Source: a virus (lineage: Duplodnaviria; Heunggongvirae; Uroviricota; Caudoviricetes). From it: 4,328 bases of DNA. A program made the translations under genes and the position numbers. Under the pieces are notes generated by a model. It saw nothing but the letters and a program-made list of their open reading frames with translations, was not told the origin of the DNA and did not search any database. Location: the IMG/VR virus record IMGVR_UViG_2734482584_000005. One strand, given 5' to 3'. This document shows, piece after piece, positions 1 through 4,328 of the stretch. Each line of letters starts with the position of its first letter. Within the stretch, counting starts at the first letter, position 1.

Positions 1-305
1 GCCTCCGGACGGGCATCATCCTCCGTCATGGCACCGAGAAAATCATTCAGCGTACCGGGTCGGGAATCTTCATACACAGTGATGGTCCCGGCATGTGACG
101 GCGGGAATCCTTCCACCAACAGAATAACGCTGTACTGACCGTACTCAACGTCCATGCTGTAACGCCCGGCTTCATCCGGATTTTCTGAGGCCAGCGTGTT
201 CACCACCACCGTGGTGCTGTTACGTTTTGCTTTCAGCTGGATTGTGCAGTTCTGTACCGGTTTTCCTGTGCCGTCTTTCAGTACACCTGAAATCTTTACT
301 GCCAT
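1..305 (-). CDS. stf: Side tail fibre protein Stf, N-terminal fragment (partial; 3' end lies beyond the window start)
   Basis: Hand translation of the minus strand from ATG at 305..303 gives MAVKISGVLKDGTGKPVQNCTIQLKAKRNSTTVVVNTLASENPDEAGRYSMDVEYGQYSVILLVEGFPPSHAGTITVYEDSRPGTLNDFLGAMTEDDARPE..., open to position 1. This matches the conserved N-terminus of lambda Stf (orf-401) as I recall it. Position 64 nt downstream of lom reproduces the lambda J-lom-stf order. Absent from the ORF track, probably because it runs off the window edge. Confidence 0.87.
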   Translation of the reverse strand, partial: MAVKISGVLKDGTGKPVQNCTIQLKAKRNSTTVVVNTLASENPDEAGRYSMDVEYGQYSVILLVEGFPPSHAGTITVYEDSRPGTLNDFLGAMTEDDARPE

Positions 306-308
306 ATT

Positions 309-314
309 CACCCC
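309..314 (-). promoter_or_regulatory. Candidate Shine-Dalgarno for stf (GGGGTG on the minus strand)
   Basis: Minus strand reads ...TTTTTTGTGGGGTGAAT-ATG; the G-rich purine stretch ends 3 nt before the stf ATG. Weak match to the GGAGG consensus. Confidence 0.35.
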
Positions 315-316
315 AC

Positions 317-343
317 AAAAAAGCCCGCCTGAACCGGCGGGCT
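317..343 (-). terminator. Rho-independent terminator downstream of lom
   Basis: Minus strand reads AGCCCGCC-GGTTCA-GGCGGGCT followed by TTTTTTG: an 8-bp GC-rich stem (plus-strand arms 322..329 and 336..343), 6-nt loop, and a T6 tract (plus-strand A-run 317..322; the outermost A-T pair overlaps the tract). It starts about 27 nt after the lom stop codon. The plus strand has no T-run after the hairpin, so it is unidirectional. Confidence 0.72.
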
Positions 344-369
344 GTCATAACACTGTGTTACCTGGCTAA

Positions 370-969
370 TCAGAACTTATAACCGACACCCACGATGAAA
401 CCGTCAGTGCGCCAGTCGCCACTGCCGGAGCCTTCATAAGCAATATCAATGGCCACGGATTCGGTCGGGTTAAACTGCACGCCAGCTCCCCACGCCAGAG
501 ACGTGTTGCTGTGGCGACCGTCATCACTTCCGGTCAGCACGTCGTGCGTTTTCCCCTTGTTGTCAGTTACGCGGAGATAATCCCCGGAGAAAGTCGACAC
601 ACGGCTGTAAGCCACACCCGCCATCGCATACGCGCTGAACCATTCATTCACGCGCACAGACGGCCCCGCCATTACGCTGAACCAGCGGTTACGAACGGAA
701 TCTTCATGCCAGCGGGTATCGCTGTAACGGGTCAGCTGGCGATTCTTGTCTCCTGCATAGCTGAATGACGTCACCAGCCCCAGCGTATCCGTAAACTCAT
801 AACGGTATTTCACGTTAATCCCGTTCAGATCATCACTGCCGGGAACGTTGGTCCGGGCATGAAGATACCCCGCGCTCAGCGTGGACTGATGTTCAGACGC
901 CCATGCAGGCGCACCGGATACGGCCAGGCAAATGGCTGCGGACAAAATGGCTGCACAAACTTTACGCAT
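370..969 (-). CDS. lom: Lom outer-membrane protein (Ail/Lom/OmpX/PagC family 8-stranded beta-barrel); phage moron / lysogenic-conversion gene
   Basis: 199-aa ORF with ATG at 969..967 and TGA at 372..370. The N-terminus MRKVCAAILSAAICLAVSGAPAWA-SE is a typical Sec signal peptide with an AxA cleavage motif (24 aa). Alternating amphipathic strands and a C-terminal YKF (terminal aromatic) are typical of OMP beta-barrels. Sequence and position immediately downstream of J match lambda Lom as I recall it. Confidence 0.93.
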   Translation of the reverse strand: MRKVCAAILSAAICLAVSGAPAWASEHQSTLSAGYLHARTNVPGSDDLNGINVKYRYEFTDTLGLVTSFSYAGDKNRQLTRYSDTRWHEDSVRNRWFSVMAGPSVRVNEWFSAYAMAGVAYSRVSTFSGDYLRVTDNKGKTHDVLTGSDDGRHSNTSLAWGAGVQFNPTESVAIDIAYEGSGSGDWRTDGFIVGVGYKF

Positions 970-974
970 AATTA

Positions 975-980
975 CCTCTC
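975..980 (-). promoter_or_regulatory. Shine-Dalgarno for lom (GAGAGG)
   Basis: Minus strand reads GAGAGG-TAATT-ATG, giving 5-nt spacing to the lom start codon. Confidence 0.6.
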
Positions 981-993
981 GCTTTTCTGCAAT

Positions 994-1017
994 AAAAAAG
1001 GCGTCATTCCTGACGCC
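994..1017 (-). terminator. Rho-independent terminator between J and lom
   Basis: Minus strand reads GGCGTCA-GGAA-TGACGCC followed by TTTTTTATT: a perfect 7-bp stem (plus-strand 1000..1006 and 1011..1017), 4-nt loop, and T6 tract (plus-strand A-run 994..999). It lies about 23 nt downstream of the J stop codon. Confidence 0.62.
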
Positions 1018-1039
1018 ATTTATTGGGGTTATAAATATT

Positions 1040-4000
1040 TCAACGAATACTGATGCCGGAAGCCGCTTTTTTGGTCACAATCACCGTACAGTCGGTGATA
1101 TTGCCTGCCCCCTGATTGCCTTTCTGGAAAATCTTAAACTCCAGAGTGACGCTACCACCACCACTAGGCATATCAATAACTGCACTGTAACTACCGGGAA
1201 TGGCACCTTTAGTTTCTCTGGATGCGATTAATACGCCGTTTTTGCGAACTTCAAAACCATAACCCGTGTATCGCGTGCCTCCTGGGTTATTTCCGCTCCC
1301 CGGATCGTCATACGCTATACCGTTAAAAATAATGGGCGGAATAATAATCTGGCGGTCAAAGTTATGATCATCGCTTATGGTGACTGTAACCGTCCCGTTT
1401 GGTGTTTCCGTGTTACCCCACGTACCAGCCTGTTTCGGAAATGATTTGGATACAGCTTTAACGAAGTCACCTCTGACCTGAGTCGCCTCCAGCATGCCCT
1501 TAATCGTACAGTTTTCATTTACCGTGACATTGTTGAGCGTCCCGGCGTTCGCATTCACACTGCCACTGATATCCGCATTTTTAGCGGTCAGCTTTCCGTC
1601 CGGAGTCAGGGAAAATGCCGATGGATTTCCACCGCTGGTAATGGTGGGGGCCGTCAGGCGTTTCAGGAACACGTCGTTCATGAATATCTGATCGCCCTGA
1701 CCAACAAACATCGGTTTTGTGTTGCCATTCGCAGGATTAACCATCGCAATCCTGTCCGCCGCCAGCAGCACCTGACTCTGCATGCCGTCAGGGGTGTTCT
1801 CAATACCGGCACCAATACCCGCGATATAAAGGCGTCCGTCCTGCATCTGCTGCAGCTTCACAGCCCACATGCTGTTCAGGTTATTATTTGTATCAACCTG
1901 AACCTTCTGTATCTGCTGAATTGCCGCACTCTGGTCTTCCAGTTTCTTATTGACGGTCTGCGTGATTTCATTGCTGACATCCGTAATGGACGTCCTGATT
2001 TCAGCCAGGTCAGGCGCAAGCTGACCGTTATCAATCTGCGTCCACAGCTCCTGAGCCAGATGGGTTTTCCCTATCTCGCCTTTGAAAAAATCCAGATAAC
2101 CGGATGCATCATCACTCGGCTGACCAACAGCCTCCACGAATGCCGATTTGCCAACGGTGTTCACACTGCGGATATAAAAGTAATAATCATGGCCCGGTTT
2201 GATATTGATACTGGCGGCTATCCAGTACAGCGCCGTGCCAAGATAGCGTGCTGTGGTTTCAACCTGCCTGATATCCGCAATCCGCTTTTCCGAGAACCAG
2301 AACTCAAACTGTACCGTCGGATCATAAACCGCAAGATGCGGCGTGGCGGTTATCTGAAAATAGCCCGGCGTCAGCTCAATCCGCGACAGCGCTGCCGGTG
2401 CGGCAATCCGGAACGATACCGACGCCGGATCGCCCTGCTGCCCCCACGCATTTACTGCCCGGACTGTCAGCCTGTAGTTCCCCAGCGCCAGTTGTGTGAA
2501 GCGGTAAGTGGTTTCCGTCGTCCGGGCCGTGCTGACCAGCCGCTCACTGCCGTCATCCGCTGTTACGGTCAGACGGAGCAGGAAGCTCACGCCCTTCACC
2601 ACCTTCGGCGTGTCCCAGCGCGCCAGCACCTGATATTCCCCGCTGTCTGCGGTGACTTCGGCAGTCAGGTGCTGCACCGCTGGCGGCGTGACACCATTCA
2701 CCGTGCCGCTCTGGTCGCCGTCAAAGTGCGCCCCGTTATCCACGATGGCTTCTTTTTCCGGCACATGCTGCACGGCGGTGATGGCATACGTGCCGTCGTC
2801 GTTCTCACGGATACTCACGCAGCGGAACAATCGCTGGTGCAGCGTCGGCAGCTTCAGCCCCCACACGCTGTATTCAGCAACACCGTCAGGAACACGGCTC
2901 ACTTTTACCTTCACGCCGTCGGTGACGGACTGGACCTCCACGCTGACCGGATTCCCCTGCCCGTCAACCAGGCTTATCAGCGTGGTGCCGGAGGATGGCA
3001 GCGTGATTTCACGGTCGAGCGTCAGCGTCCGGGTCTGGCTGTTCACCGCCAGCACGCGCCCGCCGGTGCGGATACCGGCATAGTCATCATCGCAGATTTC
3101 AATGACATCGCCCGGTACATGACGAAGCCCTTCAGCACCCACGCTGAAATCCACGGTCTGCGTCTCCAGCAGTTCCGTTTTAATCAGCCACAGCCCGGCG
3201 CGGTGTGCCTGCCCCNNNNNNNNNNNNNNNNNNNNNNNNNNNNNNNNNNNNNNNNNNNNNNNNNNNNNNNNNNNNNNNNNNNNNNNNNNNNNNNNNNNNN
3301 NNNNNNNNNNNNNNNNNNNNNNNNNNNNNNNNNNNNNNNNNNNNNNNNNNNNNNNNNNNNNNNNNNNNNNNNNNNNNNNNNNNNNNNNNNNNNNNNNNNN
3401 NNNNNNNNNNNNNNNNNNNNNNNNNNNNNNNNNNNNNNNNNNNNNNNNNNNNNNNNNNNNNNNNNNNNNNNNNNNNNNNNNNNNNNNNNNNNNNNNNNNN
3501 NNNNNNNNNNNNNNNNNNNNNGGTGCGGATACCGGCATACAGCGCATCGCCGAGCAGAAATCACTGAGCACATCCCACGCCTTGCGCTGTGTGGTCAGCC
3601 AGGCATTACAGGTGATGCGCGGCTCCGTGCTGCCAAAGCCGTCCGGCACCGACTGGTCACAGTACTGGCCGATGACATACAGCGCCCATTTATCCACATC
3701 TGCCGCACCAAGACGTTTCCCCATGCCATAGCGCGGATGGGTCAGCATATCCCACAGACACCAGGCCATGTTGTTGCTGTATGCCGGTTTTAACGTTCCG
3801 TCCCAGATACCGCTGTATTGCCGCGTCTGCGGATTATAGTTCGACGGCACCTGCAGAATGCGCCCGCGAAGATGATAATTACGGCTCACCTGCTGGCTGC
3901 CGAACTGCTCCGAATCCACCTGTACGCCGACCAGTGCCGTGTTCGGGTAGCACTGTTTCACATCGATGATTTCGGTGTATGACGACCAGAGCGTTTTGTT

Positions 4001-4328
4001 CTGCAGCTGGTCTGTGGTGCTGTCCGGCGTCATTCTGCGCATCCGGATATTAAACGGGCGCGGCGGCAGGTTATCCACCACCACCGAGGCCAGATACTGC
4101 GAGGTGGTTTTGCCCTTAATGGTGATGTCTTTTTCCGTCACCCAGCCACCGTTACGCTGTATCTGAACCAGCAGGCGAACTTCAGACGGATTCCTGTCTC
4201 CCTTTGAGGTGGTTTCCACCAGTGCCTGTACACCGAAGGTAAAACGCAGTCGGTCAATGTTTGCCGACGTGATGGTCCGGGTGATCGGCGTGTCATATTT
4301 CACTTCCGTACCCAGCACCGTCTCGGAG
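1040..4328 (-). CDS. J: Tail-tip host-specificity protein J (central tail fibre), partial: N-terminal ~95 aa lie beyond the window end; interrupted by an N gap at 3216..3521
   Basis: ORF-track entry 1040..4318 (1092 aa) begins at an internal GTG; the same frame stays open to 4328 (...[62 protein letters not shown]...). This matches lambda J from about residue 95 onward, from memory. TGA stop at 1042..1040; C-terminus ...[14 protein letters not shown]. The FN3-like central region ([70 protein letters not shown]) is conserved. Confidence 0.95.
3065..3082. repeat. 18-nt exact direct repeat GGTGCGGATACCGGCATA; second copy at 3522..3539 abuts the N gap
   Basis: Compared base by base: 3065..3082 and 3522..3539 are identical, with the next base differing (G at 3083, C at 3540). 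On the minus strand the first copy encodes YAGIRT and the second encodes MPVSA, so the two copies sit in different reading frames of J. Confidence 0.85.
3216..3521. other. Run of 306 N (assembly gap or masked sequence) inside the J coding region
   Basis: Directly visible. 306 is a multiple of 3, so the J frame is preserved across it and the ORF track shows a run of X. Counting the 8 flanking nt on one side and 1 on the other, it spans 105 codons where lambda J has about 90 between the conserved motifs CMPV and GQAHRAGLW. Confidence 0.99.

Follow-up and report, generated by a model that had tools for sequence, protein, structure and literature searches.

The J gene in this 4,328-nt stretch of viral DNA (the window) is interrupted by a run of Ns, and the bases at one edge of that run recur elsewhere in the same gene, which raises the question of whether the locus records a real change in a phage tail protein or an error made in assembling it. 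The first-pass annotation had described a 306-nt N run interrupting J in frame, had noted an exact 18-nt copy of the gap-edge sequence 457 nt away in a different frame, and had suspected an assembly artefact with an over-extended contig end. The description is exact: the Ns occupy 3216..3521, the J open reading frame stays open through them, and GGTGCGGATACCGGCATA occurs at 3065..3082 and 3522..3539, 457 nt apart, as the sole repeated 18-mer in the window. Recurrence of an 18-mer by chance was rightly judged very unlikely, as the longest exact direct repeat in 200 shuffles measured 10-15 nt. Read in gene sense, which for all J readings is the minus strand, the copy at the gap falls in the frame T ATG CCG GTA TCC GCA CC (M P V S A), whereas the downstream copy reads TAT GCC GGT ATC CGC ACC (Y A G I R T).

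The window carries three genes in the order J - lom - stf, all on the minus strand and annotated alike in relatives (Table 1). The same arrangement is found in thousands of complete E. coli genomes, the best of which is 97% identical across the whole window, and the matching gene is annotated gpJ in thousands of E. coli genomes. Homology to gpJ and the lom/stf context place the interrupted gene in the gpJ / TipJ family. The window J shares 98% amino acid identity with lambda J at residues 86-351 and 72% at residues 442-1131, after the gap; the corresponding values for a 1137-aa relative are 98.5% and 85.5% on the two sides of the gap. Window Lom is 45% identical to lambda Lom, and the Stf N-terminus is 93% identical to that of lambda. 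A Pfam search of the 1137-aa relative, not the gapped window ORF, returned FNIII-A_GpJ, Phage-tail_3, Ig_J, Ig_J_second, Phage_Tail_Tip and Ig_GpJ_C, so that all six domains are present. The window has in common with lambda the J-lom-stf gene order, and its gap flanks are colinear with V351 and G442 of lambda J; it differs in being a mosaic relative, of a kind widespread in E. coli prophages, and not lambda itself. These comparisons identify the window as an ordinary mosaic tail module of a lambdoid prophage. Its J/Lom type is frequent in E. coli prophages at ~97% DNA identity. In the assembly collection, 1,552 blocks list the exact Lom protein, and 10 long contigs that encode it are 96-98% relatives without Ns.

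Table 1 Features of the window, with coordinates, strand and remarks
Feature	Coordinates	Strand	Remarks
Side-tail-fibre gene (stf), first 101 codons	1..305	-	ORF and annotations of relatives
Ail/Lom family outer-membrane gene (lom)	370..969	-	ORF and annotations of relatives
Lambdoid tail-tip attachment / host-specificity gene J	1040..4328 (ORF 1040..4318)	-	5' end lies beyond the window; gap inside
Genuine CCGCACC, codons I-R-T, CGC (Arg) allele	3065..3071	-	Apparent template of the 7 nt at 3522..3528
Downstream 11-nt micro-homology TATGCCGGTAT, codons Y-A-G-I, frame TAT|GCC|GGT|AT	3072..3082	-	Kept in all relatives aligned
N run, 306 nt	3216..3521		Most likely a scaffold gap of estimated size; replaces 268 natural nt, J residues 352-441
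7-nt non-J tail, gene sense CCGCACC	3522..3528	-	Replaces the universal GGAACGG of W-N-G; the artefact proper
Upstream 11-nt micro-homology TATGCCGGTAT, codons C-M-P-V, frame T|ATG|CCG|GTA|T	3529..3539	-	Present in the window, L001, L005, L006 and L007 (lambda)

Natural and stray bases at the two repeat sites were separated by aligning the window with four related loci, L001, L005, L006 and L007 (lambda). At the upstream site every real J aligned reads TGT ATG CCG GTA TGG AAC GGG (C M P V W N G), and at the downstream site every real J aligned reads GAC TAT GCC GGT ATC (C/A)GC ACC. The alignment with lambda bears out the ...CMPV-WNG ascribed to it in the first-pass annotation. Across the natural junction, lambda and other relatives read TGTATGCCGGTATGGAACGG; the gap-edge copy in the window reads TATGCCGGTATCCGCACC and ends at the Ns, where relatives carry GGTATGGAACGG, and 7 of the 18 bases of the repeat are therefore anomalous. 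The first-pass annotation had counted 8 nt, TCCGCACC, in place of real J: the sequence does deviate, over 7 nt only, because the T is common to the natural TGG. It had also proposed a natural micro-homology, and one exists, as the 11-nt TATGCCGGTAT and not as ATGCCGGTATC. This 11-nt repeat, found at both J sites, is of a length within chance for 4 kb by the shuffles. The 7-nt tail is a different matter. It repeats 3065..3071 of the window base for base, CGC allele included; the window shares this allele with L005, and lambda, L001 and L006 have AGC. A match of 7 arbitrary bases has a chance of ~4^-7, or ~6e-5, and the tail is thus a copy of sequence lying downstream in the same sample, attached at the micro-homology. 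At its low edge (3215) the gap is clean, with relatives matching to the last base and continuing with CCGG.

The length of the N run can be compared with the natural distance between its flanks. In thousands of complete genomes both flanks match J with their order and orientation preserved. Of the 97 fetched loci in which both are present, 94 have them 268 nt apart, and the remaining three have 265, 266 and 270 nt. The same 268 nt separates them in L001, L005-L018 and phage ev099, and in spread samples of ~55 E. coli genomes and 27 phages, lambda among them, the record spans 531 nt against a query span of 576. The window, by contrast, implies 306 + 7 = 313 nt, an excess of 45 nt or 15 codons, so that the length across the gap differs from that in the J loci (313 vs 268). 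The earlier estimate that the insert of 105 codons exceeds the lambda equivalent by about 15 is exact: from V to the G of GQAHRAG the window has S, A, CCN and 102 X, compared with 90 residues in lambda and every relative. No J among the 97 loci is longer than 270 nt between V351 and G442. In real J, the segment that is absent under the Ns comprises the 90 residues 352-441, which begin with WNGQTLTFVQDRPSDK, end with FGCTSR and lie inside the Pfam Phage-tail_3 hub domain (330-498). The hidden sequence is almost certainly this standard 90-residue, 268-nt segment, and likely nothing new lies under the Ns.

The junction of the tail with the upstream flank was looked for in other genomes. Across 4,264 complete E. 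coli genomes, a 50-nt query that begins at 3522 aligned at 12,612 J places, none of which matched 3522..3528; the best matches all begin at query base 8, which is 3529, with 100% identity. Since a place bearing the junction with either the CGC or the AGC allele would top the E. coli ranking, such an allele is absent there. Similarly, all 135 fetched loci with the high flank begin aligning at 3529 and none runs through 3522-3528. Of 4,294 E. coli records, 3,687 match the adjoining 3529-3571 at 100% identity. The junction 20-mer TGTATGCCGGTATCCGCACC returned no match in viral contigs, none in metagenome contigs and three in species-representative genomes, all of them chance matches in unrelated high-GC MAGs otherwise dissimilar to the window. 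As a positive control, the natural 20-mer TGTATGCCGGTATGGAACGG was present in at least 120 viral contigs. The bases at 3522..3528 are thus absent from all J copies searched and traceable to 3065..3071 in the same assembly.

What is shown is a tail that adjoins the Ns, is foreign to J and copies the downstream allele of the window, together with a length across the gap that is wrong by 45 nt. The locus is most likely a scaffold gap of estimated size next to a mis-extended contig end, and not biology. This agrees with the over-extension that had been suspected at the outset, given edge bases foreign to J that copy the window's own sequence, a junction absent elsewhere, a gap of the wrong length and a clean low edge. 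We infer that the Ns are the original scaffold gap. A draft scaffold running through a lambda-type prophage tail module would have joined contigs 1..3215 and 3522..4328 by Ns, the 306 being a read-pair estimate and not a base count, off by 38-45 nt. The high-coordinate contig would have overrun its true end by 7 bases, taken from a place in J that naturally lies 412 nt downstream, the jump occurring at TATGCCGGTAT, the 11-nt stretch that stands naturally at both J places. The natural 11 nt and the stray 7 nt would together make up the 18-nt 'repeat'.

The event behind the tail would be a chimeric read, a graph tip or a mis-extension by a gap closer; the 7 bases probably stem from a read that was chimeric or wrongly placed, or from a graph tip that the assembler or gap closer retained where coverage of the contig end was low. 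Nodes of the usual de Bruijn graph (k >=21) are not connected by a homology of only 11 nt, and something further, for instance a chimeric read or a permissive extension step, has therefore to be assumed. The 18-nt overlap would fit k-1 of a k=19 de Bruijn graph, although this is speculation. The 45-nt excess is a multiple of 3 and keeps the J frame, as a real in-frame insertion would, and chance alone achieves this one time in three.

Among the alternatives, the one that survives best takes the tail as real DNA, contributed by a minority molecule in the sample or by another copy of J, with a 412-nt deletion between the 11-nt direct repeats that arose by a slipped-strand, micro-homology-mediated event. 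The assembler would have followed this branch for a few bases until the graph merged with the normal path, and would then have stopped. The junction has the form of such a product, with the upstream flank, the common 11-mer and then the downstream continuation, and its allele, CGC, is that of the sample itself. Most E. coli genomes have several copies of J, and an 18-nt common end is what a k=19 graph would be expected to leave. However, the junction of the sequence predicted for the deletion molecule, TGTATGCCGGTATCCGCACCGGCGGG, occurs with neither the CGC nor the AGC allele among the 12,612 J copies in complete E. coli genomes, and it is likewise absent from the viral, metagenome and species-representative collections. 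Moreover, the scaffold places the supposedly deleted 3215..3083 directly after the gap, so that the scaffold as written is not that molecule. The intervening segment is present and no genome searched has the junction, which sets the locus apart from a deletion allele. We consider this explanation unlikely. Micro-homology-mediated deletions and PCR/template-switch chimeras between short direct repeats, whether formed in vivo or during library preparation, resemble the window in the form of the junction, whereas here only 7 bases extend past it, the would-be deleted segment follows, and the junction was seen in no other genome.

A second alternative holds that the Ns are a deliberate mask of equal length, and that the source J is truly 45 nt (15 codons) longer and encodes V-S-A-P for V-W-N-G, for example through a template-switch copy of downstream sequence. 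The documentation of sequence collections states that some stretches are masked with Ns, the frame is kept across the gap (313 - 268 = 45 = 3 x 15), and a replication template switch would yield a downstream copy starting at the micro-homology. Against this, the extra length is seen in 0 of the 97 loci with both flanks, whose spacings are 268, 265, 266 and 270, and in 0 of ~80 sampled genomes and phages. A downstream copy that simply continued would read GTA TCC GCA CCG GCG GGC GCG TGC TGG CGG TGA and meet a stop after 10 codons (3064..3041), leaving J broken and not extended. A return through the second common motif, ACGCTGACG ('TLT' codons at both sites), was tried as a source of the excess and rejected, as it would give +32 nt and not +45. 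A mask laid over natural sequence, in turn, leaves the 45 extra nt and the 7 odd bases unexplained. The equal-length mask is accordingly very unlikely. In its specific form, Ns that hide real bases with a genuine 15-codon in-frame insertion at J residue 352, in the Phage-tail_3 hub domain, made by a template switch between the 11-nt micro-homologies and unseen in the other J examined, the proposal is hardly probable. A natural 15-codon length variant of the hub domain would exceed 270 nt, and none of the 97 loci does. If the insertion were nonetheless real, a phage tail gene would offer one more minor case of template-switch mutagenesis.

The weakest proposal, an IS or other large insertion in J with the 7 nt as its first bases and the Ns as a collapsed repeat, draws on the fact that IS elements are multi-copy and commonly give contig breaks with short foreign tails, but it is extremely improbable: the tail is the window's own downstream J sequence (p ~6e-5), which a copy explains better than an IS end does, the termini of IS1 and IS5 (GGTGATG..., GGAAGGTGCG...) are unlike the gene-sense CCGCACC, and with the low gap edge 268 natural nt from the break an insertion alone would not remove the segment. 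Mosaic filler was also considered as the content of the gap, with phage ev099 (H143) and E. coli H2 (H113) as candidates that each match only one flank by megablast. It was rejected, ev099 having the standard 268 nt and H2 being a truncated J pseudogene.

The preferred reading, a scaffold gap beside a mis-extended contig end, is supported by what is seen of J in other assemblies. The median number of J copies per E. coli genome is 2-3 in our searches, and the highest is 13-14. Public draft contigs frequently break off in this part of J: eight of the 120 viral contigs listed with the natural junction end within 261 nt downstream of it. In two of these eight, the IMG/VR contigs L021 and L048, the last 15 nt and the last 25 nt, respectively, diverge from all other J, which suggests that contig-end errors at this segment are not peculiar to the window. 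The high gap edge lies within a very conserved island. In a variability map built from loci anchored by BLAST, this island is the diversity minimum of a 1.9-kb stretch in the sample, a minimum to which we attach little weight because it is inflated by the choice of viral loci through an exact 20-mer at that place.

Contig edges are error-prone in assembly, and according to a review of finishing tools this is why SSPACE and GapFiller trim them (PMC5596377). The window has much in common with the contig-edge errors found beside gaps of estimated size in short-read draft assemblies: an N run of non-round length, contigs colinear with complete genomes, a few wrong edge bases, a gap size off by tens of nucleotides, and a multi-copy, repeat-rich gene. 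It differs in the greater specificity of the error relative to generic low-quality ends: an 11-nt micro-homology leads from the wrong bases back to one template, 457 nt away (412 in nature). Both ends of the window (1 and 4328) lie inside multi-copy prophage genes, stf and J. The 4,328 nt may thus be an entire short scaffold of a fragmented assembly, which fits the scaffold-gap reading.

Taken as written, the scaffold would encode a J protein that contains V-S-A-P and is 15 residues too long, and such a protein is unlikely to exist. Annotation, protein clustering or variant calls that use 3522..3528 or the 306-nt length would propagate the error. Trimming the 7 bases and treating the gap as ~268 nt gives a standard J, a matter of data hygiene only that brings no new biology.

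Three further features of the window were observed. A perfect 13-nt inverted repeat at 3531..3543 and 3776..3788 (ACCGGCATACAGC / GCTGTATGCCGGT) overlaps the micro-homology motif ATGCCGGT, so that the motif occurs a third time, inverted, within 250 nt of the contig end. The repeat probably arose by chance, and it is possible that it provides another source of mis-joined reads. Within J, 1715..2040 (the Phage_Tail_Tip region) has no megablast match in the ten loci with the exact Lom protein, while its flanks match at 94-97%; the same stretch does match L005, and it appears to be another recombination patch within J. Finally, two GC hairpins that resemble terminators, each followed by a T tail, are found on the gene strand at 1017..1000 (-), directly after J, and at 343..322 (-), directly after lom, so that lom would be bracketed by terminators.
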